Virus record (IMG/VR): IMGVR_UViG_3300022468_000286
DNA from: a virus
Lineage: Duplodnaviria; Heunggongvirae; Uroviricota; Caudoviricetes
DNA length: 64,000 nt
Strand: one strand, 5' to 3'
Shown: piece by piece, positions 16,590 to 63,720 of the stretch
How the letters are laid out: each line of letters begins with the position of its first letter
Position numbering within the stretch: position 1 is the stretch's first letter
Position numbers and translations under genes: made by a program
The notes under the pieces: generated by a model
Told to the model about the DNA's origin: nothing
The model's input: only the letters and a program-made list of their open reading frames with translations
The model's database searches: none

Positions 16590-17031
16590 ACAGTCTCAAG
16601 GAATTCTTGATGCGTTCATTGTGCTTCTCAAGACCTTCGTAGTCAACGGTGATATTCTTCATCATGCTTGCTAGACTTTCTTGGCACTCAGCATCTTTAT
16701 TTTCATCTTTCCAAGAATAAAACTGCTCTTCAGATTCGAAGTGCGATACCTGTGCCATTCCCCAGATCATTTCTGATACTACAAACTCCCAACGCTGGAA
16801 AAAGAACTCATCCAAGTCCCAAGAGTTTTCCTTGGGTTTAGCTGAAGAACTTCTGATATGTTCGGGAACATCCTCATCATCTACTGATGGGGCACCCTTA
16901 ATCTCTTTCTGGTAAGCACACAATACAGGATGAATGATCCGAGCCAGAGTGTAATCTACGCTCCACAGGTCAGTCTTGCTGACTACAATCTGATCCTTTG
17001 TAGGTTCTTCAATGTCAATATTTACTTGCAT
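16558..17031 (-). CDS. Hypothetical acidic protein
   Basis: 157 aa ORF in the minus-strand operon. Confidence 0.3.
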   Translation of the reverse strand: MQVNIDIEEPTKDQIVVSKTDLWSVDYTLARIIHPVLCAYQKEIKGAPSVDDEDVPEHIRSSSAKPKENSWDLDEFFFQRWEFVVSEMIWGMAQVSHFESEEQFYSWKDENKDAECQESLASMMKNITVDYEGLEKHNERIKNSLRLFGKYFRCLWT

Positions 17032-17040
17032 ATTATCCTT

Positions 17041-17349
17041 TCAGTGAACTTGTCCGTTATAGAGGTGATGGTACTCAGGGAAGAACAATGTTTCGTTAGT
17101 TTTCTGAAACATGAAACCAAAGAAGTCATCCTTCAGTAAAGGGTGAGGAAAAGCATGCGTAGCTCCCTTCTGTACGTAGTACTGCATCTTTACCCACTCT
17201 GATCTGCAGGCACTACACGCTGCAGAGTATACAGCAAATAACTCTTCGGATTTAACTTTCTCGCAGATATCTTTCATGGCCTTGTAGCGTTGAAAGGTAT
17301 GTTCAAGAAATAAGTAATAGTCCGCCAGTATAACTACATCGTTAGTCAT
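17041..17349 (-). CDS. Hypothetical protein
   Basis: 102 aa ORF. Confidence 0.3.
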   Translation of the reverse strand: MTNDVVILADYYLFLEHTFQRYKAMKDICEKVKSEELFAVYSAACSACRSEWVKMQYYVQKGATHAFPHPLLKDDFFGFMFQKTNETLFFPEYHHLYNGQVH

Positions 17350-17372
17350 TAGTCTTCTGTTCCTTTAAGTAT

Positions 17373-18014
17373 TTACCCCCACTGCTCCCCCATAGCTTCA
17401 GCAATCCCTCGGTAGGTTTTTGATCGCTCAAGCCATCGGTTTTCTGATGGTGTTAGTCTGTTCTGTCCACTATCAGTTTGGTTGGCCCACCTCTTGTAGA
17501 CTTTACCATTCTTCTGAATCAATCTAGGCTCTATTATAGTCCCCTTTTGAAGAATTGGCAAGCCTTTTGTTAACCACAATCCTGTAGATTTACTTGCATC
17601 ATCCCCGAATTCCCAAGGTTGTATCACCTGATCTGGTTTTCTGATGGCAGTACTTATAAAAGATGGAGAGGGATTCTCGATACATACAGGGTAAGGTAAG
17701 TCTAGCAAGGCTTGAAAGTTCTCCAGAGCTTCTTTCTGAGCTTGCCTTCTTTCAGCACCCACCAAGGTTCCTTCCTTTACCTTCTGATGGTACGGACCAT
17801 CACCTAGAGCCCAAGCTGCACTTACGGTCAGGTACGTACACATAGGGTGTAGTATAGCCAAGTCCCAATCTTCCGTCAAGACTTCCCAGATATCGCACTG
17901 CAGATGATTAGGCCCATCAGATGCTCGAAGGTCGCAAGTATATGTATCATGCCCTTTGTTCTCAAATGCCTGCCTTGTTATTTGACAGGTTGAATATCCT
18001 ATTAGTACTTTCAT
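17373..18014 (-). CDS. Hypothetical protein with weak cytosine-C5 methyltransferase-like motifs
   Basis: 213 aa. The N-terminus MKVLIGYSTCQ, a PC-like HPMCTYL and an ENV-like CIENPS occur in C5-MTase order, but no FxGxG SAM loop is present. Confidence 0.25.
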   Translation of the reverse strand: MKVLIGYSTCQITRQAFENKGHDTYTCDLRASDGPNHLQCDIWEVLTEDWDLAILHPMCTYLTVSAAWALGDGPYHQKVKEGTLVGAERRQAQKEALENFQALLDLPYPVCIENPSPSFISTAIRKPDQVIQPWEFGDDASKSTGLWLTKGLPILQKGTIIEPRLIQKNGKVYKRWANQTDSGQNRLTPSENRWLERSKTYRGIAEAMGEQWG

Positions 18015-20185: not shown

Positions 20186-20995
20186 GCCAATTTCAACACC
20201 TTTATTTGTTACTCTGCTTTCGCAGGGTCAAGTCATTTCTGCTTGACTCTATATATCACTATATAGAACAGACTATATCATCACCCATTTCTGGGGTTTA
20301 TCGTCCGAGCTTATAACTAAAACTTGGCAGGGTGTATTCACCAATAAGAGCATCGAATTTCTCAACATCCCTAGCACGAAGCCTGAGATACCAATAATTG
20401 TTTTGACGGTTAATATTGAATTCAAGACCAAGCTTTTCTTTAATAGCTTGTTTCAGTAATAGATTATCTCCATAACTGAATCCCTTAGTATTCAATGTAA
20501 TGTTTGGTTTAGCATCTGGGGAGCGTTGATCTTGCACCCTACTACCATCTGCCATAAAAATAATTGCTAATGCTTCTGCATCCATAAGGGTAAGCATATG
20601 CGGGTCAATTACTTTCTTACCGTCAATATAAATTCGATTTCTAATTGTTGTTAATTTTGGATGATTTTTAGAACGTAGTGTAATCTGTGGCTTTCTGTTA
20701 AAACCATCGTCAGTTAATTTACGGTCTGAAATTGAACATCCAATCCCTGCCTCTACCAGAGTATCACGTACTTTTTCAACGTAATCGCTATTCTCTTTTT
20801 TCATATTCATGGTAAATGAAGCGTTGGTAGAATTCGCAACTAAGTATAAACCACCATCAAAGGTAGAAAAATAGTATAGTCGCTTAGTTAGTTCTTTACT
20901 CATAGTCGTTGCACCTTCCATATCGGATTGGCACAGGATTATCTCACTGAGACTTCCCCTGTTTTTAGATAAATTATTCATAAGACCTTACGATC
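20186..20995 (-). mobile_element. Group I-type intron with embedded LAGLIDADG HEG interrupting the RNR gene (boundaries approximate)
   Basis: The RNR reading frame is broken by stops on both sides of a free-standing 227-aa HEG ORF with its own RBS. An in-frame intein is excluded. Confidence 0.5.
20298..20981 (-). CDS. LAGLIDADG homing endonuclease (two motifs)
   Basis: The motifs are YYFSTFDGGLYLV and AIIFMADGS, about 100 aa apart. Confidence 0.6.
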   Translation of the reverse strand: MNNLSKNRGSLSEIILCQSDMEGATTMSKELTKRLYYFSTFDGGLYLVANSTNASFTMNMKKENSDYVEKVRDTLVEAGIGCSISDRKLTDDGFNRKPQITLRSKNHPKLTTIRNRIYIDGKKVIDPHMLTLMDAEALAIIFMADGSRVQDQRSPDAKPNITLNTKGFSYGDNLLLKQAIKEKLGLEFNINRQNNYWYLRLRARDVEKFDALIGEYTLPSFSYKLGR

Positions 20996-22006
20996 TTAGG
21001 CCGCTAGTTTTAACGGATTATAGCAGAACTCTTTATTATCAGTAAAGATAAAGCCGGGCTCACCGAAATCCTTCACAGATTTCATAATGTCTCGCCATTC
21101 ATCTCGCGTCAGTTCGTCACGGATAAGCATCACAGAGTTATTGCTGCGACCACGTTGAGGGTTCTTGGCAAACCAGTTACCAGTTTTTGCCTTCAGCATA
21201 TCCTGATCATCTTTATCGAACAGACAGATGGTAGCACTGCGACGTACACCACCAGACAAAACAGCGTCAGACATATGCATAACAAAATCATATGCAACGA
21301 TTGTAGGAATCTTGACTGCTACCTTACTATTTACCACGAGGTCTTGTAAAAGCTTTTCACACTTCACAAGGGATTCACGCAGACCATCAGGGCCGGGAGC
21401 CTTGAAACCTCCAGAAATCATCGCACCTTTTGGTCGAATCAAGCTATAATCAAAGTGAACCTGCACGCCTTGATATTCTGGGAAAGTAGCACCTTCAGTC
21501 AAATAGCTTGAAATAAGTACACCATAAGCATCAGCCCAACCCTCGATAGTGTCAGGTACGGTAAATACCTTTACTCGTTTTTCACTACGTTTCTGAATAC
21601 TTGGGATTTTATTTACATGATGTTTTTGAACTGAGAATCCTACACCGCAACCGCACAGCAGTAGGTACATTGCTTCTTGAAAGAAGGCTGGACGATCACA
21701 ATGCGAAACCGAACAATTATACATTCTAGCATTATGCTTGAATAGTTGTTCACCGCCGAATTGCAAAGCACGTTGTGCACCAAGTACAAGCTTTTCCTTA
21801 TAGGCTTCTTCTGCGTAATCAATAGCTGCAGCCAGAGCAGGAGTCATTTTATCTTTATACTTTTCCCGGTGCATGTTCATCACACGCTGTACAGATTCTA
21901 CCCATGATTCATAACGCTTATCTTCTTCAACCCACCGTGAATAGCCCATATAGAACTTAGATTGAGCCATCATGTCTTTTGTATTTTGTTCAGCTTTAAT
22001 TGTCAT
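20996..22006 (-). CDS. Ribonucleotide reductase large subunit, 5' exon (N-terminal half, no ATP cone)
   Basis: 336 aa ending ...GEPGFIFTDNKEFCYNP, just before the conserved catalytic NxCxE region. A stop follows, then the HEG. Confidence 0.6.
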   Translation of the reverse strand: MTIKAEQNTKDMMAQSKFYMGYSRWVEEDKRYESWVESVQRVMNMHREKYKDKMTPALAAAIDYAEEAYKEKLVLGAQRALQFGGEQLFKHNARMYNCSVSHCDRPAFFQEAMYLLLCGCGVGFSVQKHHVNKIPSIQKRSEKRVKVFTVPDTIEGWADAYGVLISSYLTEGATFPEYQGVQVHFDYSLIRPKGAMISGGFKAPGPDGLRESLVKCEKLLQDLVVNSKVAVKIPTIVAYDFVMHMSDAVLSGGVRRSATICLFDKDDQDMLKAKTGNWFAKNPQRGRSNNSVMLIRDELTRDEWRDIMKSVKDFGEPGFIFTDNKEFCYNPLKLAA

Positions 22007-23316: not shown

Positions 23317-23663
23317 TCGTTCTCCTTCTGAATTTCACTTTCAAGCACAATAAAGGAATCAAAGGGTTCATTGAGATTCTTTACATGGTAGCGTTGGTAC
23401 CCAATAACTTCTACAATTTTCACTTGTTTACCTTCGAATCCAAACTCATCACCTTTCTTATATTTAGGTGCATCTATGTCAAGAGCCTCCCAGACAGTGG
23501 CAAATTTTTCGACTGCCTTAACTTGTTTGTCCTTAAACTGAAACTCATCGCCTTTGGCATGGATATTAATTACTTTATCTTTCTTGTTTTGCTTGTTTTG
23601 CATTATTTTCCCTTTCTTCTTCGATCCGAAGCTGGAGTTTAAACAAAAGACTGGAGATTGCAC
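23313..23663 (-). CDS. Hypothetical protein
   Basis: 116 aa. An internal Met (MQNKQ) may be the true start. Confidence 0.25.
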   Translation of the reverse strand: MQSPVFCLNSSFGSKKKGKIMQNKQNKKDKVINIHAKGDEFQFKDKQVKAVEKFATVWEALDIDAPKYKKGDEFGFEGKQVKIVEVIGYQRYHVKNLNEPFDSFIVLESEIQKENE

Positions 23664-24153
23664 AAGCTAGATGGTAGCAATCAGTGCCGCCTTCGCCGTT
23701 ATCAATAAAATCTCCACGCTGATCAGCCCAAAGGTGTCTCTGAGCAGCAGAGAAATATCTTGACTGAGGATTATCAACCAAACGCCAGTTCTCTTGATCA
23801 ATAGGCTCGTTGTACTTTATTGCCCCTTTGGTAAGGACCATCACAACCTCTTCTAGAGCGTCTGCGGGGACTAGGTTATACATAGGCTTACCTGCATCGT
23901 ATTTGCGGCCTTGTAGAGGCTTCTCAGCCTTATCTGTGGGCGTATTAACCTGAGTGATTTCCTCTTTCTGTTCTGACTCTACTTCGCTAAAATAACCTCT
24001 ATAGTAGTTTGTGCAGTTATCAAGTCCTTTATCACAACCTTCACGATCCCCGTTAAAGACGCAAAGATTGCAAGGTTCTTGCCCTTCCTCCGCAACCATC
24101 ATTATGTACTTCTTACCAAGAATCTCATACTGTTCCTGATCCGCTATTTTCAT
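23575..24153 (-). CDS. dNTP pyrophosphohydrolase-like protein (DUF550/MazG-fold type) with N-terminal Cys-rich domain
   Basis: The motif KYDAGKPMYNLVPADALEEVVMVLTKGAIKYNEPIDQENW matches the phage dATP/dGTP pyrophosphohydrolase family pattern. Confidence 0.45.
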   Translation of the reverse strand: MKIADQEQYEILGKKYIMMVAEEGQEPCNLCVFNGDREGCDKGLDNCTNYYRGYFSEVESEQKEEITQVNTPTDKAEKPLQGRKYDAGKPMYNLVPADALEEVVMVLTKGAIKYNEPIDQENWRLVDNPQSRYFSAAQRHLWADQRGDFIDNGEGGTDCYHLACAISSLLFKLQLRIEEERENNAKQAKQER

Positions 24154-42052: not shown

Positions 42053-43123
42053 TCACTCCAGATTGCTCATAAAGAATTCGCGGGCTTTCTTAGAGATCGC
42101 TCCGTTTACATCCTTTGGCTCAATACCTGATGCGATCATGGTAGAAAGCTCTTCCTTGAGGATATCACCTACAACCCAGCGCAGGTAGTCGCCAGTGCTT
42201 CGAACACTGTGTTCTAGGCCCATCTCTGTAAGCTTATCAAGCCCTTGCTTCAGACGGTTTTCAGTACAAGCGTAATCCACGAACTCTTGAACACTCTTAA
42301 CCTTTTCCTCGTCCACTGGAGCAATAGTCTTTACCTTACTAGCACTGTGCTTCTCACCTTTAACCTTGAAGCGAAGATCGCACAGGGTAGTATATAGTTC
42401 CTGTGAAATATCTGGATTATCATCAAGGTTTACTTCGGGCGATACAGACCAAAAAATACCTTCACCAATAAGCTCTCGGGCTTCATCTGGGCCAAGTAGT
42501 TGTCGTGCTACTGGGCAGTCCTTCTCTACACTTTCAGTCAGTGCAACCAGTTGATTTTGCACCAGTGTTGGAGTATCGAAATCAATCTCTACACTATACG
42601 TAGGAAAGTTATGCGAGAAATAAATATTATCAGGACGGCCCCTCTCATCAAAGAAAGATTCCCAACTGCGAGTGGAATGCCATTCCTTCCCTTCTGCATC
42701 TTCACTGAAGCGAATAGCAAAGACTACAAACATCTTTGGAAGATAGGACAGGCCAACACCCTTTTGGATATTACCACCGCACCATTCACCGTAGATTTGA
42801 ACGCACTCTCCGTCCTTGAGGATACCTCCAGAAAGGTCAATAGCTACATTATCCCAGTATTCCTTGTTACCGTATACCCAAGCAGCAAAGCCAGCGTTGT
42901 CGCTCTCAGGAGTGATGATACGTTCACGGCTTTGGCACCACCATTCACCTTTTTGGTTAATTACAACGGCAGCATTAGTGCCGTGCAGCTTTACAGTACC
43001 CTGCAGGCGAACTTTAGGTACAGGCACATTGTGGTACTTAGCTGTAGATTGCACTTGCTTAATAGCATCGCGGAACTGCCCGGTGCTTGGAAACTTAATG
43101 AAGGTATTCTTTTGAACTTGCAT
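42053..43123 (-). CDS. RNA ligase (Rnl2-like)
   Basis: Motif I is VKLHGTNAAV (T4 Rnl2 has KIHGTN). The size of 356 aa is compatible, and later motifs are EWCGGNIQ and ...KVKGEKHSASK. Confidence 0.55.
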   Translation of the reverse strand: MQVQKNTFIKFPSTGQFRDAIKQVQSTAKYHNVPVPKVRLQGTVKLHGTNAAVVINQKGEWWCQSRERIITPESDNAGFAAWVYGNKEYWDNVAIDLSGGILKDGECVQIYGEWCGGNIQKGVGLSYLPKMFVVFAIRFSEDAEGKEWHSTRSWESFFDERGRPDNIYFSHNFPTYSVEIDFDTPTLVQNQLVALTESVEKDCPVARQLLGPDEARELIGEGIFWSVSPEVNLDDNPDISQELYTTLCDLRFKVKGEKHSASKVKTIAPVDEEKVKSVQEFVDYACTENRLKQGLDKLTEMGLEHSVRSTGDYLRWVVGDILKEELSTMIASGIEPKDVNGAISKKAREFFMSNLE

Positions 43124-43125
43124 AT

Positions 43126-43395
43126 TTACTCCTCTACCTCAACCAACTTCATGTTGAGCTTCTTGAATCGAAAGTCTTTTGCCTTGACTGTATTTGTTGA
43201 GAAAACAGTAGATGGTGCATTTAACCAACAACCATAAACTCCATGTTCATCTTTAGGGGAATAGTTTACGACAAACAATATCCATCCAGCATAGTACCCG
43301 TGAGGGTCTGCAACACACTCATAAATCTCTCCAGCTTTCAGGTTCCCCGGCGCTACGTGAATTTTTTGCTCATCCTTAAGTCGTTCAATTTGCAT
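43126..43395 (-). CDS. Hypothetical protein
   Basis: 89 aa. Confidence 0.3.
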   Translation of the reverse strand: MQIERLKDEQKIHVAPGNLKAGEIYECVADPHGYYAGWILFVVNYSPKDEHGVYGCWLNAPSTVFSTNTVKAKDFRFKKLNMKLVEVEE

Positions 43396-43415
43396 ATTTT
43401 TCTCCTTTAGTAAGA

Positions 43416-43877
43416 TTACAACACCCAGCAGGTTTTCTTTACTTGATTCTGTGGGTCACAGTCATTGATGATGGCTTCGATTATATCCCAATCTCCACCA
43501 CCAAGTCCAGCACCAATCTTAGGGAAATGAACTTCTAGGTCAGTTGCCTTTGCCTGACGGAAAACTTCCGTGAAGGCTTTGGCAATGGCTGCATAGTTAA
43601 CATGCCTCCGATCCGTACCGAAATACTCTTGAGTAATTGCATTAGCAATAAAAAGGTTCTTGGAAAAGTCAATACAAAATTCAGGATTAAACCAAACAAC
43701 GCTTCCAAGCGGAAGAGTTTCTTCTTCATAAACCCGGCGATATTCAAGGAAGCATTCAAAGTACTTATTCTTGATTGCAAGTGCTACACCTGAACCCATG
43801 ACACCCTGAGCATTGCAGCCATGCACGATGATGCCAACTTTTACGTCAAGAAGATTGCCGCGTTTATATTCAATCAT
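43416..43877 (-). CDS. Macro-domain protein (ADP-ribose / Appr-1''-p binding or processing)
   Basis: The motifs are GIIVHGCNAQGVMGSGVALAIK and KIGAGLGGGDW. Confidence 0.65.
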   Translation of the reverse strand: MIEYKRGNLLDVKVGIIVHGCNAQGVMGSGVALAIKNKYFECFLEYRRVYEEETLPLGSVVWFNPEFCIDFSKNLFIANAITQEYFGTDRRHVNYAAIAKAFTEVFRQAKATDLEVHFPKIGAGLGGGDWDIIEAIINDCDPQNQVKKTCWVL

Positions 43878-43885
43878 TATTACTC

Positions 43886-44044
43886 CTAATCAAAAACACA
43901 AAGACACAGAGGAATTCCCCAGAGTATGAACAAGGCTATCAATGCTCCAACCCAAAAAGCACTGCCTAGTGCTGCAGAGATTGTACCACCTACGGACACA
44001 AAAAGTACATGCATCCAGAACCAGAATTGAAATTCTCCCTTCAT
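43886..44044 (-). CDS. Small membrane protein (52 aa)
   Basis: ATG at 44044 with RBS aaggag 2 nt after the ligase stop. It encodes MKGEFQFWFWMHVLFVSVGGTISAALGSAFWVGALIALFILWGIPLCLCVFD. Confidence 0.35.
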   Translation of the reverse strand: MKGEFQFWFWMHVLFVSVGGTISAALGSAFWVGALIALFILWGIPLCLCVFD

Positions 44045-44045
44045 A

Positions 44046-44939
44046 CTACTCCTTAAAATCCATAAAATCACGAATGCCTTTGAACACAGGGAATCGAGGA
44101 ACATCATATCCACCAAGGTCAAAGAACTTAACAGTAGCGAACTTTCCGATGAGTGTATCACGGATTGCCCAAAGAGCATCACGAGTCTCATCATCAAACC
44201 CGCTACCACAGCCGAATTCTACACCAGTTTTAGTCTTCAGGTACAATACCCCTAGTGTGTCCAATGGAATCATTCCTGCTTGAGCAGTACTTCGTGAAGT
44301 CCTTCCAAGTTCATTGATCTTCGCTTCGTTTGCATTGTGATACTTACAATCAAATCCGACGATTTCAAATTCCTCGTCCTTGAAAAGCTTCAACTTCAGC
44401 AGCAGACCTTCCTTCAAGGAGCTTCGACCGAACTTATATTTTCCGTCAGGCTTCTTGGTCATTGCCCCTTCATACCCTTGCTTAACATACTGCTTGCGAA
44501 GGGCCTCCAGAGCCTCTGCAGAGTGTACAAGAACTTGAGGTAGTACCGAGGTATTGCTAGGCAAGATACGCGATTCTAGAGCCTTTAGACGATCCTCAAA
44601 GCCTCCTTCAGAAACGATATCAAACGCATAGAAACTGAAATCCTGTACCTTGTCATGTGACATTACAAAACTTGCAGTTTCACGGAAGACATTCTCTGCG
44701 GTAGGGCTACCTACAATGAATTCCCCGTCTACGTTTTCAAGAGCTTGTGCATTTCGCTTGGCCCATTCCTGAATGCTTTTATTAGGGATAGGCTTCAGAC
44801 TGCGTGACAATGCTACACCATTCCGAATAACAGCACGGATACCATCAAGCTTAGGGCTGACGTATACAGGGTACTTGATATCAGCCAGAACATCTACCTG
44901 AGAAGCCAGCATTGGCTTGAATTCTTTGATCTTCGTCAT
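44046..44939 (-). CDS. ATP-dependent DNA ligase
   Basis: Motif I is SPKLDGIRAV (KxDG). 297 aa. Confidence 0.8.
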   Translation of the reverse strand: MTKIKEFKPMLASQVDVLADIKYPVYVSPKLDGIRAVIRNGVALSRSLKPIPNKSIQEWAKRNAQALENVDGEFIVGSPTAENVFRETASFVMSHDKVQDFSFYAFDIVSEGGFEDRLKALESRILPSNTSVLPQVLVHSAEALEALRKQYVKQGYEGAMTKKPDGKYKFGRSSLKEGLLLKLKLFKDEEFEIVGFDCKYHNANEAKINELGRTSRSTAQAGMIPLDTLGVLYLKTKTGVEFGCGSGFDDETRDALWAIRDTLIGKFATVKFFDLGGYDVPRFPVFKGIRDFMDFKE

Positions 44940-45093
44940 ATTACTCCTTAAGCGTCTGGATTACTCAAGACATAAAGCAACGCATTAATACTCTGGATAA
45001 TCAAATGCTGTGCATTCGGTGATAAGTCCTGCCACTTACGGGTATCTCCATATTTTTCGGCAATCTTTTGCCAGTAGATTTCAACGTCTGACA

Positions 45094-45381
45094 TTATGCG
45101 TCGATGCTTTCATTTTGAATTGCTGAGTTCAAAGCATCAACAAAAGCAGAAGCCTTGTCAAAATCCAGATCAGATTCCACTACGGTAATCATGCGGCCCT
45201 TGCTATCAGAGGCAACCACATCAACCAGTCGTGGACTAGACAGGCTGCGACGTAGATTATATTCAGAGACAATCTTAGGGTCAACCTTCTTCACTTTTGT
45301 TTGCTCCTTTTCGACCTTAGCGTCATACATGAAGTCATTACGAATGCTGTGGATTTCTTGAGTGTTTTGATAAGCTTGCAT
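45094..45381 (-). CDS. Hypothetical protein
   Basis: 95 aa. Confidence 0.3.
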   Translation of the reverse strand: MQAYQNTQEIHSIRNDFMYDAKVEKEQTKVKKVDPKIVSEYNLRRSLSSPRLVDVVASDSKGRMITVVESDLDFDKASAFVDALNSAIQNESIDA

Positions 45382-45545
45382 GTGATACCCCCTTTTTTTT
45401 TAGTAATTAATCTTCGAAAACTTCTTCGGACAGGCGACCTTTCAGAGATCGCTGAGGTTGGAGATAGTCCAGTACCTCGTCTACATCCTTGTCTGAATTA
45501 TAGTAGAAAAAATCCTGACTGTCTTCTTTATTTTTGACTTCTTTT

Positions 45546-45881
45546 TTACTTTTTGTTTGCTTCTTTTGACTCATTTGCTCTTTCTGCCTCCCGCATAGTT
45601 TCCTGTAGTTCTTTCTTGAAAGTAATACTTGGCCTGAATTTTACATTGTAACTCTTAGGAAAGTCTACCGTCTTCTTGAGTTGAAAATTATAAGCGGATT
45701 TTGGATTGATGACCTTCAAGGAAAAGAAACCAACACCGGGAAGGTTCACATCTTGCCCTTGCATGATTTCGTCAATGATTGTAGCACGAAGAACACGAAG
45801 CATATCATCGTATTCATACGCATGATACTCTGGGTTGTTCGCGTGCATTGTCCTTGCAAGCTCTCTCTGGGATTTATGCAA
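45546..45881 (-). CDS. HU/IHF-like DNA-binding protein
   Basis: The HU-fold pattern is present (DVNLPGVGFFSLKVINPKSAYNFQLKKTVDFPKSYNVKFRPSITFKKEL), followed by a Lys-rich tail. Confidence 0.55.
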   Translation of the reverse strand: MHKSQRELARTMHANNPEYHAYEYDDMLRVLRATIIDEIMQGQDVNLPGVGFFSLKVINPKSAYNFQLKKTVDFPKSYNVKFRPSITFKKELQETMREAERANESKEANKK

Positions 45882-46448
45882 TTAACGCTCCTTGTGATGA
45901 TCAGTAATGACAAGTTCTTGCCTTGCCATATAATTTGCAATATCGAATTCACTATAAAACCGATGTGAACCGAACTGATTGTAACTGTTGTCAATCCCTA
46001 CGTCAAGCATCTTCCCTGTAGGACTCTTCAGGTTTCCGTGACAGTGCCCATGCAGATGCCAAGAGCCATACCCTTGCTTGTGCCACGCCATAATAGGGAA
46101 GTGAAACAGAACAACAGGATGATCGCCAATCTTGATTTCCTTATACTGCCACCAGTTGTTAATCAGTCCATCCTTTTTAAGCCAATCATATGCAGCCGTG
46201 CTGTCGTGATTACCCTTAATCAGATTAATATTACCATTCAGCCTAGAAACGAACTTCGCAATATCCTCGTACTTACTTGCAAAGGACAGATCACCGAGAT
46301 GCCAAACTTCATCCTGTTCGGCAACATCACGATTCCAGACATTCACCAACCATTCGTCATGGTCTTCTACTGTTGTTTGCCAGCCTCGATTTGTAAATTC
46401 TACAATACGCTTATGGCGGTGGTGTAAATCACTTGTAAAAATCTTCAT
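45882..46448 (-). CDS. Calcineurin-like metallophosphoesterase
   Basis: The motifs are SDLHHRH, GDLS and GNHD. Confidence 0.6.
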   Translation of the reverse strand: MKIFTSDLHHRHKRIVEFTNRGWQTTVEDHDEWLVNVWNRDVAEQDEVWHLGDLSFASKYEDIAKFVSRLNGNINLIKGNHDSTAAYDWLKKDGLINNWWQYKEIKIGDHPVVLFHFPIMAWHKQGYGSWHLHGHCHGNLKSPTGKMLDVGIDNSYNQFGSHRFYSEFDIANYMARQELVITDHHKER

Positions 46449-47309
46449 TTAAACTCCTTTCAACTGTTCAAGAACTGACCTGCGATTAACTTCAGAAAGC
46501 TCTTTCCAGAAACTCAAATCATACACATTAGTAATAAATGCAGGAACATCTTGCCACATTTTAGGCAAGGATTCTGCAAACTTCTGAGGGTTATTGTACA
46601 TGACTTCAGAGTTCTTTGCACTCAAACGCATCAACTTCTTCTTACCTACGTAGTAAGGAGTTTTGATCTTTGCTGGACTAAGACGATCAGGATCATCCTT
46701 TAGATTGTACACCATGAAACCTTCACCTGTATTAACCTCAGCGATTGCAAGGATACCTTTGAGAGTGCCTACGTACATATCCTCTGCTTTGCCGTAAGGG
46801 CCGAATGTACCGTCTACGCTGCGCCGACCAAGATAATGCGCCCCTACAGGCTCATCAACAATATGCGGATCGTCCTTATGAACAATCTCATAAAGCAATG
46901 TGCAGTCAGGAGCCAACCAGTTCAAGTCCGGCAGAAGTTCCTTAGCATATCCAACAAAATCACTCTTAGTGCTTCCTGTGGTGCTTACGATCAGTTCGCC
47001 TTCATGCTTACTGACGCATGCCATGAATCCGTTGTACTTCTTGTAAGCAATCACTGGAGTGTCCAGAGGAACATCCTTCCACCAGCCGTTTTCCAAGTAG
47101 TTAAAGCTCTTACGTGGTGCTGCAACTACAAGCTTGCCGGTGCGATTATCATAAGTCTGTCCACGGCATTCCAGAAGGCGTTCGTCAGTATCCCAGAGGT
47201 AATCAAACATTACACGACGAGCGTACTTGAACGTATCCAAGTGTCCGTTGGTGCTTACGGTCGCCAGCTTGTTAGCAACCAACTCTTGCATTTGTTCGTA
47301 TGTATTCAT
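46449..47309 (-). CDS. Covalent nucleotidyltransferase, RNA-ligase-like (Rnl1-type candidate)
   Basis: Motif I is AYKKYNGFMACV, motif IV EGFMVYN and motif V KIKTPYYVGKKK. 286 aa. Confidence 0.45.
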   Translation of the reverse strand: MNTYEQMQELVANKLATVSTNGHLDTFKYARRVMFDYLWDTDERLLECRGQTYDNRTGKLVVAAPRKSFNYLENGWWKDVPLDTPVIAYKKYNGFMACVSKHEGELIVSTTGSTKSDFVGYAKELLPDLNWLAPDCTLLYEIVHKDDPHIVDEPVGAHYLGRRSVDGTFGPYGKAEDMYVGTLKGILAIAEVNTGEGFMVYNLKDDPDRLSPAKIKTPYYVGKKKLMRLSAKNSEVMYNNPQKFAESLPKMWQDVPAFITNVYDLSFWKELSEVNRRSVLEQLKGV

Positions 47310-47659
47310 TATTTACTCCACTTCTTCGTTTTGTAGTCCCACCCGATTTCCTTGTAGAACTCCCATAAGTTTGGAAGTTCAATCAACGTAGTGTACTCCG
47401 GAGGCGGCTCTTTGCCTAGACTTTTCTTAAAAATTTCTATTGTCTGATAGAAATCATCCACATGCTGGAAATGATACATGAGTTCATAATCGTTCAGTTC
47501 TTTACCTCCCTTCCAGTTTCTTTGTTTTGTACTATGAAAGAAAGCACCAGAGCTTACACGGGAGCGATAACATATAGGATACTTCCCGTCATCCAGATCA
47601 AAAACAAATCTCCGATTGCTACGAGGATTGCGCCTAATTTCAGTAATAATTACTCGCAT
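47309..47659 (-). CDS. Hypothetical protein
   Basis: 116 aa. Confidence 0.3.
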   Translation of the reverse strand: MRVIITEIRRNPRSNRRFVFDLDDGKYPICYRSRVSSGAFFHSTKQRNWKGGKELNDYELMYHFQHVDDFYQTIEIFKKSLGKEPPPEYTTLIELPNLWEFYKEIGWDYKTKKWSK

Positions 47660-47730
47660 AGATTCCTTTCAAAAACAAAAACCCCCAATACAGATAATGT
47701 ACTGGAGGTTTCGTTGCCTGTCAAGGCTTT

Positions 47731-49155
47731 TTACACACTGGCGTTAGCACGTACTTGATCAAAGGTCATAGAGTTCAGCACCTGACCGTTGAGGTAACGG
47801 CAGATGAGAGCCCCGTCAGAGGTATCTTCACGAGTCAGAAGGTTATCCGTCACGTACTCACCGTCATTGCCCCGGAAGAGCCACACAAGGCCCTTCTTGG
47901 ATACCTTGCCCTTATCGGTAACTGGGTCTTTGAACACGTCACGCCAATCAACAGAAGCAAAGAATCCTTCGTCTGAATCAAGCTTTTCGTTATTACCGAC
48001 AGCACTGCACTTCATGGCGTACTTCTGGTCATCCCGTGTAACAGCTTGCAGCAATGCACCGCCTTGGCCGAAGGCGAGCATATCAGCAGAGTACCCGTAA
48101 ATGTCCACAGCAGTACGCAGGATGGTTTCAATGGTGAGCTTAGTAATACCGTCGCCCCAGATCATGCGAACGTTATTCAGAACCTTGTAGCCCTTATCGT
48201 TCGTCACATATCCGAAGTATTGTTCAAGGATTCGCAAGCATGTAGGTACGACCAAAGCAGGATCGCCGCTATCAGGACGGACAACAAGAGTAGCACAGCT
48301 TGCCTTGATTTCCTCTGCAAGTTCACCCCACATATGGCATGCCTTGTAGATATCATACGAATCAGATACGCATGCAAAGATAGCACCGGGCTTGGCAAAT
48401 TTCTTAATCATATTGCGGTAAGCATCCTTTTCACCGTCACGACCCCAAGAGGTAATCGTGCTGTGTTCGCTCGCGCCGATACTGAAAATAACAGGCTCGG
48501 TAGCGTCGTAATACTTAGCAGCAAACAGTTGACCAGTCATAGTGTCAGAGCCCATGAAATTTACGGCATGCGACAGAGAGCCAAGACCAGCAGTTTCAAA
48601 GCTAGAAGCACCACGAGCGCCAAAGTCATGCAGCTTGAAATCCAGACCAGAAACATCTCCGGACTTTTCAAGGTAGCTTTTGATTACCTTCTTGATTTCC
48701 CGAGAGTTAGTAGCGACAGTAGAAGTGTACCATGCAGCGCGAAGGAGAGCAGTTTCAATCCAAGTAGTTGCGAATGGAAATTCAGGGTCAGTATTGACAA
48801 CCACAGCAAGAACATTCTTTGTCTTGACAACAGAGCCATCTGGTACTGCAAATACAGCCACAGGCCAATAACCGTTGTACTTCTTGAACATCTTACGGAT
48901 TTGTTCTTCAGGGAATACACTACCGAAAGCAGGCCAAGTCTTCACTGCAAAGTCAATATCTTCTTCAGTGAAGGGCTTAGACAGATATTCACGGATGAAA
49001 GGCTGGACAAGTCCTGCGACCACTTCATCATAAATCCCACCGCGAGATTCAATGTAAGAGTAAACGTATTGCACATCTTCAGGGTATTGGGCAAACATGC
49101 CTACCTTGTAAGAGTCCGTGTTGAGAAGAATGGATTGTGTGTTGAAATTAGTCAT
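47731..49155 (-). CDS. nadV: Nicotinamide phosphoribosyltransferase (NAMPT/NadV)
   Basis: 474 aa type II PRTase with NAMPT-family organisation and DFGARGASS. Confidence 0.8.
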   Translation of the reverse strand: MTNFNTQSILLNTDSYKVGMFAQYPEDVQYVYSYIESRGGIYDEVVAGLVQPFIREYLSKPFTEEDIDFAVKTWPAFGSVFPEEQIRKMFKKYNGYWPVAVFAVPDGSVVKTKNVLAVVVNTDPEFPFATTWIETALLRAAWYTSTVATNSREIKKVIKSYLEKSGDVSGLDFKLHDFGARGASSFETAGLGSLSHAVNFMGSDTMTGQLFAAKYYDATEPVIFSIGASEHSTITSWGRDGEKDAYRNMIKKFAKPGAIFACVSDSYDIYKACHMWGELAEEIKASCATLVVRPDSGDPALVVPTCLRILEQYFGYVTNDKGYKVLNNVRMIWGDGITKLTIETILRTAVDIYGYSADMLAFGQGGALLQAVTRDDQKYAMKCSAVGNNEKLDSDEGFFASVDWRDVFKDPVTDKGKVSKKGLVWLFRGNDGEYVTDNLLTREDTSDGALICRYLNGQVLNSMTFDQVRANASV

Positions 49156-49165
49156 AGTAAGCTCC

Positions 49166-50194
49166 TTACTTTGGGTTGATAATGAAAGAGTTATAAAAAG
49201 CAGGCAAGGGTTTTGTCTGCGTCATCACCTGAATTATATCAGAATGATCGTCATGCAGTCTATAAGTATTTACTGCATCTGAGATAGGAACCCACTTGCA
49301 CTCTGCTGCGTCGTCAGCACCATTTGCTCTTGGCAACTTACCGTCAGCATCTGGTGCGATCTTGAAGTGTACCACAAAAGTGCTGCGAGGAATACCTGAG
49401 CCGCGTGTAGGGCTATCAAAAAGTTTAGTATTTACGATTGAACCTACCAGAACTTTCTCAGGAACACGAAGATTGGTTTCCTCGAAAGCCTCGCGGATGG
49501 CGCATTCTGTAAAAGTTTCAGTATTATTCTTGAATCCTCCCGGAAGAGCCCAAGTATTACGCCCCGGTGCGTACTTCCGACGAATCAGTAGAATATGTCC
49601 ATTGCATTCAATCAGAGCGTCTGAGCAGACAAAGTTCAAAGTCTCCGGATATGGGTAGTCCTTGAAACGATGATTTTCATTAATGAAATACTTGAAGTCC
49701 TCTACAACATCCTCTGGAAGTGCAAGTCCACTGTGTTCTTTTTGATTAACGAACATGCTCCATCGAATAGTAGTTGCATTGATATTACTTGAGCTTTCGA
49801 TATTATGAAAGCCATATTGCGGGAACCACTTCAGATAATCATTACCCTCTTTATCAAACCCAAAGAGAATCCTCTTGCCGAATGATTTATGCATATTGAC
49901 GATCTCTTGTACATCAAGAATCCACTGAGTATCACTGTACTTATAGTCATTCACAGGGATTACCTGAGCGTCTTCAAAATCCAGACCATTCTTATCTAGA
50001 AAAGCCTGAATCAGTTCCTTGCGCTCGGAGTAAGTCCAAGGGTTTTTGATTGTTCGTGCTACGTTAGCACTACCTACGACGATTAGAAGCTTGTCGCAGA
50101 GCTTCTTAGCCTTCAGGATAATCTCCTTGTGTCCTTCGTGCAGAGGTTGGAATCGACCAATAATGATTCCGAGAGTCTTTGTTTTTTCTTGCAT
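49166..50194 (-). CDS. Bifunctional NMN adenylyltransferase / Nudix hydrolase (NadM-Nudix type)
   Basis: The N-terminal GIIIGRFQPLHEGH nucleotidyltransferase motif is present. The Nudix box is LPGGFKNNTETFTECAIREAFEETNL. Confidence 0.8.
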   Translation of the reverse strand: MQEKTKTLGIIIGRFQPLHEGHKEIILKAKKLCDKLLIVVGSANVARTIKNPWTYSERKELIQAFLDKNGLDFEDAQVIPVNDYKYSDTQWILDVQEIVNMHKSFGKRILFGFDKEGNDYLKWFPQYGFHNIESSSNINATTIRWSMFVNQKEHSGLALPEDVVEDFKYFINENHRFKDYPYPETLNFVCSDALIECNGHILLIRRKYAPGRNTWALPGGFKNNTETFTECAIREAFEETNLRVPEKVLVGSIVNTKLFDSPTRGSGIPRSTFVVHFKIAPDADGKLPRANGADDAAECKWVPISDAVNTYRLHDDHSDIIQVMTQTKPLPAFYNSFIINPK

Positions 50195-57064: not shown

Positions 57065-57070
57065 GGTTTA

Positions 57071-57120
57071 CTCCTTTGTTTGTTGATGGGTGAATTGTAG
57101 CGCATGCATCGTGCATGTCA
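57071..57120 (-). promoter_or_regulatory. Consensus sigma70 promoter TTGACA-N16-TACAAT with conserved leader (minus strand)
   Basis: The minus-strand read is TTGACA-tgcacgatgcatgcgc-TACAAT-tcacccatcaacaaacaaaggag. It is near-identical to 55631..55682. Confidence 0.6.
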
Positions 57121-57324
57121 AGACGTTCGCATCGCCCTTGGTGCTACCAGTACTGTACTAAAGTATTCTATTGGAACTACTTATGTAGTTATATTTATCA
57201 ATGTAGTTTGTATAGAAAGACCAATGAAGTATTATTTAGTGTACTACTGTAGAATTCTAAGGATTGCCTTCGGATTGTACTGCTCTTGAAAATTCTTGTC
57301 AAGCTTTATTTTTGTGCCAAAGAC

Positions 57325-57352
57325 TTGCGCTGTGCCTTCGTTGTGCTACAAT
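57325..57352 (+). promoter_or_regulatory. Candidate + strand promoter TTGCGC-N16-TACAAT
   Basis: ttgcgctgtgccttcgttgtgctacaat. The -10 context gctacaattca is shared with the minus-strand promoters. Confidence 0.35.
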
Positions 57353-57553
57353 TCAGCATTGACTTCACTTCAGGAGCATCTTATGCAATCACAAAACGAA
57401 AATTCTAGCACAGAACTTGACCTGCACCGAGCGGTAGACACCTTGTCTAAGCTCTGGCTTTTTCACGTATGACACCAGAGTATCAGGAAATGTCAGACTA
57501 CGTAGACACTAAGCTTAAGAACAAGATGTGGCTGCAAGGGCAAGAAGGGTCGA

Positions 57554-57730
57554 ATGATGCTTAAGAGAACCAAAAGCCCATACACACACGAAGTGAAGTA
57601 CTGGACGCATTCCAAGATTTCAGGTAAGGTACACTCTTCGTTCAAGACTACCGCTGATGCCGTGAAGTGGCATGTAGAGCAGATGCAAAGAAGTGGTCTA
57701 TGCTTTGATATCGAAGTAAAGAAAATTTAA
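57554..57730 (+). CDS. Small hypothetical protein (58 aa, not in ORF track)
   Basis: ORF MMLKRTKSPYTHEVKYWTHSKISGK... Confidence 0.2.
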   Translation: MMLKRTKSPYTHEVKYWTHSKISGKVHSSFKTTADAVKWHVEQMQRSGLCFDIEVKKI

Positions 57731-57733
57731 ACT

Positions 57734-60005: not shown

Positions 60006-60176
60006 GAACACTGAAGCAGTCTGATCCGGCAGATGCTGGAGGCGCTAAAACAGCAGGGTGCTACCCACCATCATCTCAAGCAGCAATCACAGCAGCAAAT
60101 AAACGCCTGAACCCTTGACAGGCTCTGTAGGAAGCTTATAATTCCTTCATCAACAGCAACAACGCAGGAGTTTTAT

Positions 60177-61736: not shown

Positions 61737-62303
61737 ATGAATGAATGCGAAGATTATAGCAAGCCCCCTTTTGAAGTAGGCGATGAGGCTGCAGAAAGGG
61801 CCACTTGCCGCACTTATACTGTAGAGGCAAAGGAATTTGTTGACGAGCAGTGGCTTATTAAGGTTGGTGGTGAATCTAAGTACTGGGCTTATGCCAACGC
61901 CTTTATGAAAACCATCAAAGTATCTGTTGGGGATGTGATCATCACAAACACTGGGCATAAACTCACCTGCACGGCAAAGACGGAATCAAACATTGCTGGG
62001 TATCATGACGAAACAGCAAAGTACACTCAATGGGATAAATGCGGTAATTACGTAACAGGCGGGCAAGTTGGAAGCATCAAAGAAGTACATAGCCATACGG
62101 AGATTACAGATACAGCAGAACCAGAAGAAAAGAAATACACCTTGAAACAACTTATGGCTGCACTGGAAAGTAAGTTTCCGAATAACGGCTGGGGTAGTAC
62201 AATTGCTCACGATAGTCTTCAAAAAGCCCTAGACACATTGGCTGACCCAGAGTACAATGAATATCTTCGGTTGAAGGCAAAGTTCGATACAAAGAAAGGC
62301 TAA
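61737..62303 (+). CDS. Hypothetical protein
   Basis: 188 aa. Confidence 0.3.
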   Translation: MNECEDYSKPPFEVGDEAAERATCRTYTVEAKEFVDEQWLIKVGGESKYWAYANAFMKTIKVSVGDVIITNTGHKLTCTAKTESNIAGYHDETAKYTQWDKCGNYVTGGQVGSIKEVHSHTEITDTAEPEEKKYTLKQLMAALESKFPNNGWGSTIAHDSLQKALDTLADPEYNEYLRLKAKFDTKKG

Positions 62304-62304
62304 T

Positions 62305-62511
62305 ATGATGCTCAAGTTCAGTGCTCCACAGGCACTTGATATTCACATGCAGTGTACAATGAAGGAACTACAAAACCTTCGTAGCTGTATCGGTAAGATG
62401 AATCGTTTTGATCTTTTCAGAGCAGGCTGTACTATAGAAGAGGTACAGAGTCTTTCGGATTTTCACAATGACCTTACGCTTATCCTGTCACGAACGCAGA
62501 CTGAAGGTTAG
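62305..62511 (+). CDS. Small hypothetical protein
   Basis: 68 aa. Confidence 0.25.
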   Translation: MMLKFSAPQALDIHMQCTMKELQNLRSCIGKMNRFDLFRAGCTIEEVQSLSDFHNDLTLILSRTQTEG

Positions 62512-62626
62512 CCTAGAAATCCGCGTCAGGGCCTGCTGGAATTAAAAAGCCGTGTCGGGTCTTGACCCAAAAATCCACTTTGGGTATTGCTAGATAAGAA
62601 TGCTAAGGATAGGCTGCGACCGGGCA

Positions 62627-62760
62627 GTCACGAATTGAACGTATGAGTCGTGACTGACTAGTATGAGTCACGAATTGAACGTATGAGTCGTGACTGACTA
62701 GTATGAGTCACGAATTGAACGTATGAGTCGTGACTGACTAGTATGAGTCACGAATTGAGT
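62627..62760. repeat. Tandem direct repeat, 40-bp unit x 3.35 (iteron-like) with internal inverted repeats
   Basis: The unit gtcacgaattgaacgtatgagtcgtgactgactagtatga is repeated perfectly. It contains the palindrome arms GTCACGA/TCGTGAC. Confidence 0.9.
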
Positions 62761-63112
62761 GCAGAAGTTATAACCTGGCCGTATTAGTAATATCGGGAAC
62801 GATTCAGTCATAGATTATACCTTGGAGTTTGATTTTAATCTATCTAAGTCACAAAGCAGGCGATAAGGTATTTTCTTAAACGCATGAGTTATGGTGTAGA
62901 CTCTGCAGTCACGGAATTACTGTAGAGTAGTTTCTTAAACGCTATGGTAATAATTTATACTGGCATGTTTTCTGCTTTACAGTAAATCTGGAGTGTTGTT
63001 TTATTGTCAATCCCCAGCAAGGCCGTTTTTAGCCCTTTTGAGCGATTCTAGGTGCTACCCTTCACCCATGCACCTAGAAAAGTTTTCCCGCGATTGTGCG
63101 GCTTTTCACAGC

Positions 63113-63121
63113 TTATCCACA
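63113..63121 (+). promoter_or_regulatory. DnaA box (TTATCCACA), copy 1
   Basis: Exact 9-mer consensus. Confidence 0.4.
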
Positions 63122-63146
63122 ACAGTTTTCATAGGGGAAATACAAC

Positions 63147-63155
63147 TTATCCACA
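63147..63155 (+). promoter_or_regulatory. DnaA box (TTATCCACA), copy 2, same orientation 34 bp downstream
   Basis: Exact 9-mer consensus. Confidence 0.4.
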
Positions 63156-63468
63156 ACCCTGATTCTGGTGCTTAAAATTTAAGCATAGACAAAGCTGGCA
63201 TGGCTTTTGCTACGCGTGCGCATGTTATGTAATAGGAAAGCAGAGCAATGGAGGGGAAAATACTGTATGCAAACACATTAGGGTTTCTCCCTAGCATTAT
63301 TTTCGTTTGTGGTATCAGAACAACACTTTTATCTATAGAATTCATTCCATCGCAAGCAAAAGGGTTCCTTCTACCGATACTAGAAGGACGCAAGGGAACA
63401 AGATGGTCAACTGCCCAGCAAGCGATAAAAGTGTGATAGAATCAAGGCTTAGAAACTAGGAAACGAAA

Positions 63469-63612
63469 ATGTCCGAAAATACCAAACTGATCATCAAGGC
63501 TGCCAAGGGTTGGAAATCGTGGGGTCGGTACGCTGCAGAGCGTTTTGCAATCCGCAATAATCTCGACCTGCGTCTTGTACGTCTGGCGCGTCAATTAGAA
63601 GCATCGAATTAA
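63469..63612 (+). CDS. Small hypothetical protein (47 aa)
   Basis: ORF MSENTKLIIKAAKGWKSWGRYAAERFAIRNNLDLRLVRLARQLEASN. Confidence 0.2.
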   Translation: MSENTKLIIKAAKGWKSWGRYAAERFAIRNNLDLRLVRLARQLEASN

Positions 63613-63636
63613 TTCACACAAAAGGAGGATATACTA

Positions 63637-63720
63637 TGGCAGATAATCGTAAGCAATCAAAGCCTATCCAATCACGGGACCGTAAAGCCGCACGGGAAAA
63701 CAAACGTTTTGCAGGCTAAA
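63637..63720 (+). CDS. Micro-ORF (27 aa) with consensus RBS
   Basis: aaaggagg lies 7 nt before the ATG. It encodes MADNRKQSKPIQSRDRKAARENKRFAG. Confidence 0.25.

Follow-up and report, generated by a model that had tools for sequence, protein, structure and literature searches.

A conserved control locus of a lytic siphovirus lineage, with an iteron-like array, DnaA boxes and sigma-54-type promoters

Replication origins that depend on iterons, among them RK2 oriV, pSC101, P1 oriR and the origin of phage lambda, set direct repeats about two helical turns apart beside DnaA boxes, AT-rich repeats and promoters, and occur in a single copy per genome. Promoters themselves can mark an origin: T7 starts replication at promoters, and T4 origins are likewise promoter-opened. 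Here we describe a non-coding gap at positions 62512-63468 of a 64-kb stretch of viral DNA (IMG/VR record IMGVR_UViG_3300022468_000286, Caudoviricetes; the whole stretch analysed is called the window). We compared it with the syntenic gaps of the metagenomic contigs L009, L010, L011, L014 and L016 and of two cultured phages, P26059A (L017) and DC31 (L018). The gap is a conserved single-copy control locus of a lineage of lytic siphoviruses of ~76-86 kb. It probably triggers replication and/or a gene-expression switch, and the reading that we favour, though we put it somewhat short of an even chance, is a replication origin assisted by DnaA and activated by transcription, which also serves the downstream operon as its promoter region.

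The locus resembles the iteron origins in all the features named above (the AT-rich repeats are clear in DC31). Unlike them, it has no adjacent Rep- or O-type initiator gene, holds up to ~17 units against 3-7, lets its units decay gradually into AT-rich DNA and carries sigma-54-type promoters; moreover, the replisome of the phage is T7-like, and no need for DnaA is known for it. With the primary origin of T7 (phi1.1A/B and an AT-rich region) and with T4 oriF and oriG (a middle promoter and an unwinding element), the locus shares tandem promoters that lead into a presumably easily opened region of the early/middle gene block, in a phage that encodes a gp4-like primase-helicase and a family-A polymerase. 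Those origins use a phage RNA polymerase or MotA-dependent sigma-70 promoters, whereas this locus matches host sigma-54 and adds DnaA boxes and a phased array. Enhancer-dependent sigma-54 promoters, such as those of glmY/glmZ with GlrR sites and of Vibrio qrr with LuxO sites, are matched in the -24 GG and -12 GC elements, in their spacing and flanking consensus, in the repeated upstream sites and in a short downstream segment ending in a terminator-like hairpin. The locus differs from them in having no activator gene or recognisable activator site, in a 20-bp array that reaches almost to the promoter, and in lying in a lytic phage with an invariant alternating CGCGTGCGC tract at the start site. 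Finally, the DnaA-box clusters of datA, DARS and the dnaA promoter are also non-coding, with closely spaced consensus boxes, some of them over promoters; the present boxes differ in that a phage carries them, together with sigma-54 promoters and an iteron-like array.

On its left the gap is bounded by the stop codon of a gene for a 68-amino-acid (aa) protein (62511) and on its right by the start codon (ATG) of a 47-aa gene (63469). Siphovirus tail genes occupy 1-16 kb of the window on the plus strand, the minus strand from 16.5 to 57 kb encodes a family-A DNA polymerase, a T7-gp4-like primase-helicase, ligases, NAD-salvage genes and two tRNAs, and a block of small genes follows on the plus strand from 57.7 kb on. 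The same proteins occur on public contigs, the longest of which is 86,463 bp. Among cultured phages, those closest in their tail tube and DUF7227 proteins are Limnohabitans phage DC31 (tail tube 57% identical) and Curvibacter phage P26059A (tail tube 49% and DUF7227 58% identical). Both are lytic siphoviruses of freshwater Comamonadaceae, and the papers on them are silent on origin, termini and the gap (PMC5964084, PMC12195039). Contig L009 (80% identity) spans the whole gap and L014 contains a compact version of it, and in L010, L011, L016, P26059A and DC31 syntenic gaps of 0.6-1.2 kb lie 5' of the same 73-aa/DUF7227 operon; that of DC31 occupies 19.8-20.8 kb of its record. The modules are found again, in unchanged order, in metagenomic contigs and in DC31; in P26059A only the DnaA boxes and the core block are left. 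The gene that precedes the 68-aa gene encodes 188 aa (61737-62303) and shows 75-82% protein identity in four close-relative contigs (L004-L007). These contigs stop 100-200 bp past the 68-aa gene, within direct GTC(A/G)CGA+N13 repeats, and they end inside the array because short-read assemblers break at tandem repeats.

The array opens with a perfect 40-bp tandem repeat in 3.3 copies at 62626-62758 (Tandem Repeats Finder, 100% matches), as the original prediction had described it. The palindrome attributed to each 40-bp unit, GTCACGA-N14-TCGTGAC, is also present, but the basic unit is 20 bp. The perfect repeat is made of 6.6 such units, AGTCACGA and AGTCGTGAC alternating, and in a register listing the full array extends over 62626-62960 with ~17 units of the (A/G)GT(C/T/A)A type, whose starts include AGTCAC, AGTCGT, AGTTAT and AGTAAT. 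The GTCAC half-sites that had been noticed further downstream (62847 and 62906) and the duplicated TTCTTAAACGC (62873 and 62932) were found as well. The window contains GTCACGA 17 times (4.6 expected), and the 7 copies in the array alternate in orientation; the relatives carry the repeats in direct orientation, and the palindromic arrangement is peculiar to the window phage. The lag-20 autocorrelation was matched in 3 of 2000 shuffles for the part of the window's array outside the perfect repeats, and in 0 of 2000 for L009, L014 and DC31. These are the four lineages carrying the array, with 14 units in L009, ~5 in L014 and 8 in DC31, and in every one of them GC-richer consensus units come first and decay into AT-rich degenerate units. 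The array is the fastest-evolving part of the locus, with 62% identity to L009, where the flanking genes reach 81-95%; as the register is kept, the array has evolved rapidly with its phase retained. Iterons comprise at least three direct repeats of ~17-22 bp, about two helical turns, and here the units follow one another at exactly 20 bp. Judged by this register and by the grading into AT-rich units, the array looks iteron-like. At the corresponding place L016 begins (1-60) in another tandem repeat, of 27 bp (AGAGCAGCACCAGCAGCGAAGCGAAGC x2), 5' of its DnaA boxes, and the repeat type at the locus is lineage-specific. A scan of bacterial genomes for phased GTCRCGA arrays gave more than 120 unrelated tandem repeats, mostly high-GC noise, with no sigma-54 sites or DnaA boxes beside them.

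To the right of the array, 150-190 bp from its end, lie two exact DnaA boxes with the sequence TTATCCACA (box 1, 63113-63121; box 2, 63147-63155). As predicted, they have the same orientation (plus strand) and are 34 bp apart, and no other exact copy exists in the 64 kb (0.7 expected). Both are part of a 16-nt direct repeat, ACA[G/A]CTTATCCACAAC, and box 2 overlaps the -35 element of a sigma-70-like promoter, TCCACA-17-TAAAAT (63150-63178). In L009 the boxes are at the same positions and read TTATGCACA and TTATACACA; the sole change falls on the degenerate N of TTATNCACA, while the flanks have diverged. Clusters of 2-5 boxes recur in the non-alignable gaps of L010, L016, P26059A and DC31. This confinement of the variation and the recurrence of the clusters argue that the boxes are under selection, and they are real, conserved elements. 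DC31 has five exact boxes, all in the syntenic gap and the only ones in its 76 kb (0.9 expected); three point one way and two the other, converging on the AT-rich palindrome CTTATATAAG. The order there is array, four AT-rich TTATATAAGC repeats, five DnaA boxes and a sigma-54 promoter. The same CTTATATAAG palindrome stands between convergent boxes in L010 and P26059A, and by reading of the sequence its analogue in the window is GCTTAAAATTTAAGC (63170-63184; GCTTAAATTTTAAGC in L009), an AT-rich palindrome beside the boxes. In L016 the boxes lie over the -35 element of the operon promoter.

An 18-mer, TTGACTCTTATATAAGAC, which boxes flank in L010, P26059A and DC31, occurs in 29 IMG/VR contigs, and 27 of these have TTATNCACA boxes nearby. 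Often a box precedes the 18-mer by ~11 nt on the same strand, and/or a box on the other strand lies ~20 nt past its start. Sites are found in L174-L200, L142 and L162, at L010:9195-9320 and L017:8026-8072 and at 20233-20350 of the DC31 record; TTGACTCTTATATAAGAC with its boxes constitutes a widespread DnaA-linked phage module.

The original prediction had recorded the repeats and the boxes and missed two sigma-54 promoters, hairpins that resemble terminators, and the sigma-70 promoters that serve the downstream operon. The first sigma-54-type promoter, P1 (TGGCATGTTTTCTGCT, 62961-62976), is identical in L009. The second, P2 (TGGCATGGCTTTTGCT, 63196-63211), is followed directly by the tract ACGCGTGCGC, the two together covering 63196-63221. 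The strict search pattern TGGCAYG-N4-YTGCW has exactly two zero-mismatch matches in the window, and these are P1 and P2, both on the plus strand; they are also the only clean matches in the 64 kb to the TGGCAC-N5-TTGCW form, with GG and GC exactly 10 bp apart. The tract is alternating pyrimidine-purine and sits at the predicted start site of P2. Equivalents of P2 with perfect consensus are TGGCACGGGTTTTGCT in L009, TGGCACGGTATTTGCT in L014 and TGGCACAGATTTTGCT in DC31, and each is followed by CGCGTGCGC. L009 has both sigma-54 sites, L014 a single one directly after the array, and the unalignable L011 two. DC31 has two strict matches in 76 kb (0.1 expected), again both in the syntenic gap, and one of them points back at its AT-rich repeats and array.

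The pattern of promoter plus CGCGTGCGC was then found in 34 IMG/VR contigs, against ~1 expected by our own estimate, and these contigs span 32-70% GC and 5 kb to 333 kb. In 31 non-redundant loci, using a pattern that left the tested positions free, a pyrimidine precedes TGGCA in 28, G follows TGGCAY in 24, and the next position is a purine in 23. These positions follow the sigma-54 consensus (Y before TGGCA, G after TGGCAY), which supports the sigma-54 identity of the sites; the prediction of P1 and P2 as sigma-54 promoters is a well-supported one. The module sits before varied genes in other phages, and no neighbouring gene is common to all loci, which argues that it is read by conserved host machinery. 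It is present singly, in pairs or in clusters of up to ~10, and at this locus it is wired to DnaA boxes and an iteron-like array. In 11 of the 31 loci one of the most AT-rich 40-mers of the contig lies no more than 160 nt 3' of the module, against 4 of 31 upstream, and several of the 11 then bear short direct-repeat arrays. The literature searched contained no publication on the module of sigma-54 promoter and tract and no precedent for the use of sigma-54 by a lytic phage. The module is apparently undescribed, and the locus would be an iteron/DnaA-box control region of known type to which an apparently undescribed, widespread phage sigma-54 module is attached.

Several loci with the module have an organization of their own. 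In a 333-kb contig and its relatives (L144:2545-2800, L154, L160:1494-1700), the module is followed by ~50 bp of ~95% AT and then by ATATTGAG(G/A)CAAA-type repeats, an arrangement that looks origin-like. Tandem perfect sigma-54 sites were scored in 10 copies each in L161 (6250-6760, minus strand) and L170 (4880-5400), in 7 in L143 (2050-2320) and in 6 in L148 (150-600). The clustered sites, for example TGGCACGGACCTTGCW, recur every 18-60 bp, a pattern-matched copy being followed by ACGCGCGTGCGC; this is not ordinary promoter architecture. In L145 a 445-aa open reading frame (ORF) ~1.1-2.4 kb 3' of the module is Ro60/TROVE-vWA-like by reading of its sequence, an arrangement that recalls the sigma-54-dependent rsr-Y RNA-rtcBA operons of bacteria. 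The idea, taken from L145, that the GC tract forms the 5' strand of a terminal RNA stem was rejected, as a partner was present downstream in 3 of 31 loci and in 1 of 31 controls.

The remaining elements of the gap's right part, all read on the plus strand, concern transcripts and their ends. The segment 3' of P1 (62988-63107) is 91% identical to L009 and ends in a weak terminator-like CCGCGATTGTGCGG + CTTTTC (63088-63107). Its fold gave z = -3.7 in the window and -1.1 in L009, where the main hairpin is not kept, and it is a possible small transcript. A terminator scan returned the hairpin TTAGGGTTTCTCCCTAG with a T-rich tail (63278-63309). It lies in a core, CACTGTAT...CATTAGGGTTT (also read CACTGTAT...CATTAGGGTTTCTCCCTAG and a T-run), whose sequence is kept in L009, L011, L014, P26059A and several IMG/VR contigs; the core is a strong terminator in L014 (z = -3.4), and its hairpin is degraded in P26059A though the sequence is retained. 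Next comes the most conserved block, TTCGTTTGTGG...GAACAACACTTT...TAGAAT (63306-63360; 94% identical to L009), a sigma-70-type -10 element (63336-63341) with a non-canonical upstream element. The -10 varies among TAGAAT, TACAAT, CATAAT and TATAAT in L009, L014, L011 and P26059A. AACAACACTTT is unique in the window, and a k-mer census of the window gave no recurrent phage promoter word. A further hairpin, TCCTTCTA-CCGATAC-TAGAAGGA (63366-63388), is not present in L009; in its L014 counterpart, TTACCCC-GCCGATAC-TGGGGTAA, the whole stem has been exchanged around a retained loop, a compensatory change seen in this one lineage pair only. Last, an extended -10 promoter, TGATAGAAT followed by CAAGGCTTAG (also read CAAGGCTT; 63434-63442), is predicted to drive the 47-aa/73-aa/DUF7227 operon with its first ATG at 63469. 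It is kept as TGGTAGAAT in L014, TGATAGAAT in L015, TATAAT+AAGGCTTAG in L016 and TGTATAAT+CAAGGCTT in DC31. A consensus RNA fold displayed little covariation, and Rfam searches at gathering and E-value thresholds gave chance matches only, with no similarity to GlmY/Z or Qrr. CTGTAT-N7-CAT was considered as a LexA box and discarded, since all five lineages have CAT where the essential half-site would be CAG.

Then, what could such an assembly of elements do? In the origin that we favour, a phage-encoded sequence-specific protein would coat the AGTCA array, nucleating at the left consensus units and spreading into the AT-richer ones. Host DnaA would bind its two consensus boxes beside the AT-rich palindrome, and host sigma-54 RNA polymerase would start at P1 (~62988) and P2 (~63222), the promoters themselves being well supported. 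The short transcripts, or the opening of the DNA, may then provide an entry point for the T7-gp4-like primase-helicase and the family-A polymerase. The hairpin/terminator would separate this origin part from the sigma-70 promoters at 63336 and 63434, which would express the 47-aa/73-aa/DUF7227 operon, a division that conservation supports. We favour an origin because phased repeats, AT-rich repeats (in DC31), a DnaA-box cluster at a palindrome and promoters share one site per genome, because the exact DnaA boxes and clean sigma-54 sites of the window all lie in the gap, and because the replisome (primase-helicase, PolA) is T7-like and would need an entry point opened at a promoter.

Several observations weigh against an origin. 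No initiator gene of the Rep or O kind adjoins the iterons among the neighbouring proteins. The AT maximum of the gap, 77% over 30 bp, is below the 99.5th percentile of the window, so there is no striking unwinding element, and the gap has no IHF site; the window has only a 15-bp AT-rich palindrome, and DC31 the four TTATATAAGC repeats. The original prediction of an origin is upheld as far as the boxes, which are real and conserved, and the iteron-like array are concerned; neither an adjacent initiator gene nor, in the window's copy, a marked AT-rich unwinding element was found to support it. Skew analysis had been set beforehand as a test, and formally it went the other way: the GC-skew minimum is not in the gap but at the strand switch, at ~57.1 kb, 5 kb off in the window and 14 kb off in DC31. 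Skew is weak evidence here, because it follows gene orientation and is confounded by transcription. None of the modules is universal: DnaA boxes are absent from L011 and L014, the AGTCA array from P26059A, L010 and L011, and sigma-54 sites from P26059A and L010. Modules that come and go between lineages fit more easily with a modular regulatory region. The overlap of the boxes with sigma-70-like promoters in the window and L016 fits plain transcriptional control, and the many gene contexts of the sigma-54 module, with no common neighbour, argue that it is first of all a promoter. In addition, sigma-54 normally cannot open DNA without an ATPase activator, and no Sigma54_activat domain was found among the scanned window ORFs of at least 150 aa or in the gene lists of the related loci; the activator could come from the host or from the ~16 kb of the genome beyond the DNA covered. 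An HU-like protein, which had been named as a possible binder, was not found in the window by HU/IHF signatures or by tblastn with E. coli HupA and IhfA sequences. As for an origin at the skew minimum itself, the divergent gap 57065-57733 was rejected, as it has consensus promoters and no repeats or DnaA boxes. Near-consensus sigma-70 promoters are present there on both strands (57302, and 57121 on the minus strand), and the strongest consensus promoters on the plus strand lie further downstream, at 60115, 60707 and 61219.

The promoters and hairpins that had been overlooked make control of transcription nearly as likely as an origin. The locus might be a pure switch between the early operon and the next, with no role in replication, an account that we hold to be a serious if still tentative one. 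The sigma-54 promoters would then depend on an activator, the array would be an enhancer or operator for an early phage protein, DnaA would act as a host-state co-regulator, and the output would be the timing or gating of the short RNAs and of the 47-aa/73-aa/DUF7227 operon. In both architectures a sigma-54 promoter lies directly beside the array (P1 in the window and L009, the sole promoter in the compact L014), and L011 has a different repeat set 5' of its sigma-54 sites. The strong consensus sigma-70 promoters at 60115, 60707 and 61219 drive the upstream genes, the right end has conserved sigma-70 promoters and a terminator, and in the window and L016 DnaA boxes cover a promoter -35. P26059A keeps the downstream core without a sigma-54 motif, with a sigma-70-like -35 hexamer there by reading of the sequence, which suggests that the transcript or promoter output is what matters; and in other phages the sigma-54 promoter and tract precede varied genes. 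Such a switch is harder to reconcile with the failure to find an enhancer-binding protein gene in the window or the related loci, and with a phased array of 8-17 units that reaches to within 15-40 bp of the -24 element, an atypical geometry for an enhancer. Four to five perfect DnaA boxes round an AT-rich palindrome, as in DC31 and L010, would be unusual for simple promoter control, and the RNA-structure support for short transcripts is weak, with no Rfam family.

Other explanations seem less probable. One, unlikely but not negligible in our view, is that the sigma-54 consensus and the invariant (A)CGCG(CG)TGCGCG tract form an undescribed cis-module that recruits host sigma-54 RNA polymerase in many unrelated phages, possibly without an activator, and either primes or opens an origin or serves as a sponge. 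The tract is Z-DNA-prone and lies over the predicted start, and a supercoil-driven B-Z junction could mimic the -12 fork junction. Titration alone, in which phage copies soak up host DnaA and/or sigma-54 holoenzyme and silence host initiation or the sigma-54 regulon (e.g. stress, RNA repair), appears improbable. The tandem sigma-54 clusters of up to 10 copies in IMG/VR contigs are hard to explain as ordinary promoters, and DC31 has its five perfect boxes; however, the window holds just 2 boxes and 2 sigma-54 sites, conservation extends to their order, orientation and connection with the downstream promoters, and it is not obvious why a lytic phage that brings its own replisome should need to titrate DnaA. 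Repeat arrays adjoin genome ends in T7-like phages, and the contigs L004-L007, which enter from the left, all stop within the array. A packaging signal or terminal-repeat boundary (pac/cos, or the edge of a direct terminal repeat), which the original prediction had kept as an alternative, nevertheless found no support and is very improbable: such breaks are the usual behaviour of assemblers at tandem repeats, five assemblies read through the locus (L003, L009, L014, DC31, P26059A), the terminase and portal genes are 8-16 kb away, and we know of no packaging role for DnaA boxes or sigma-54 promoters. We consider least probable of all a centromere-like partition site bound by a small adaptor protein, comparable to F sopC, with repeats of 43 bp, or pSK41 parC, with repeats of 20 bp. 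Tandem 20-/40-bp repeats with internal inverted repeats beside a small gene do resemble such centromeres, but neither a ParA/ParM-type nor a ParB/ParR-type gene lies nearby, no ribbon-helix-helix (RHH) or helix-turn-helix (HTH) match was obtained for the 68-aa protein, and lytic growth with clear plaques is what the cultured relatives show (PMC12195039).

Could the flanks of the array provide its binding factor? Between the 68-aa gene and the array is a conserved leader (62512-62625, plus strand), 92% identical to L004, L006 and L009, with the motif CCCAAAAATCCACTTTGGGTATTGC (62566-62590); the motif has three copies in DC31 and a related form in L014 and P26059A. The 68-aa gene itself (62305-62511, plus strand), directly 5' of the gap, has homologues in all lineages with a GTCACGA-type array (L004, L006, L009, and L014 at 36% identity) and none in the fetched parts of L010, L011, P26059A and DC31. 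DC31 has an AGTCA array with different unit sequences, yet no detectable 68-aa homologue. An AlphaFold2 model comprises three helices (predicted local distance difference test score, pLDDT, 77), and a fold search gave no informative match. The family is tiny, as HMMER against 1.8 billion representatives returned 4 matches, none annotated. No DNA-binding, Rep or winged-helix domain was found in the neighbouring small proteins. The 68-aa protein is a weak candidate for the array-binding factor, a lead that stems from its co-occurrence with the GTCACGA-type array.

The claim that the gap has no convincing ORF needed some qualification. ORFs of 60-73 aa do exist in it, and one of 62 aa (63248-63436) was accepted by the gene caller on the identical contig L003. 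In L009 the counterpart of this ORF lacks the start codon and a 95-nt indel interrupts it, and no gene was called in the L009 gap. A protein-coding gap was rejected, as its ORFs are not conserved. Beyond the gap, a strongly basic 27-aa ORF, MADNRKQSKPIQSRDRKAARENKRFAG, with a ribosome-binding site at 63636-63719 is kept in L014 as MSDNRKQNKPVQSRDRKQARENKRSY and may be a real micro-protein.

Searches with the region itself returned little. No DNA match to deposited phages, close or distant, was obtained for the region. Pseudomonas phage M1, the nearest relative by PolA, has few replication genes in common and no synteny at the locus. In IMG/VR, the 188-aa protein, the repeat unit, the leader and the DnaA-box pair matched nothing when used as queries; the alignment of the 73-aa family led to one distant locus there; and a scan of a single JGI (Joint Genome Institute) metagenome returned the L009 contig alone. 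Further non-coding gaps of 0.8-3 kb lie 3' of the operon (L009:6919-8033, L011:11844-13038, L017:12794-13810, and 1-2973 and 16848-17667 of the DC31 record), the two of DC31 being without exact DnaA boxes.

Elsewhere in the window, on the minus strand, a LAGLIDADG homing endonuclease (20298-20981) adjoins an ORF with ribonucleotide reductase domain fragments (20996-22006), and the whole, 20298-22006, suggests that the reductase gene is split or interrupted by an intron or intein. A protein encoded at 23575-24153 (minus strand) has an N-terminal dATP/dGTP diphosphohydrolase domain of the MazZ/DatZ-like type; MazZ/DatZ-like proteins occur in phages that modify their purines. At 42053-50194, again on the minus strand, two RNA ligase-type genes, a macro-domain protein, NAMPT and a NadR-like NMNAT/Nudix protein make up what is likely an RNA-repair and NAD-salvage (counter-defence) set.

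For the abundant freshwater/wastewater phages related to P26059A and DC31, the locus offers a precise, testable candidate in two cultured systems. The use of sigma-54 by lytic phages is essentially undocumented. If functional, the locus would be a new coupling of a phage programme to host physiology, through DnaA status and sigma-54 signalling, and it might reveal an activator-independent initiation by sigma-54.

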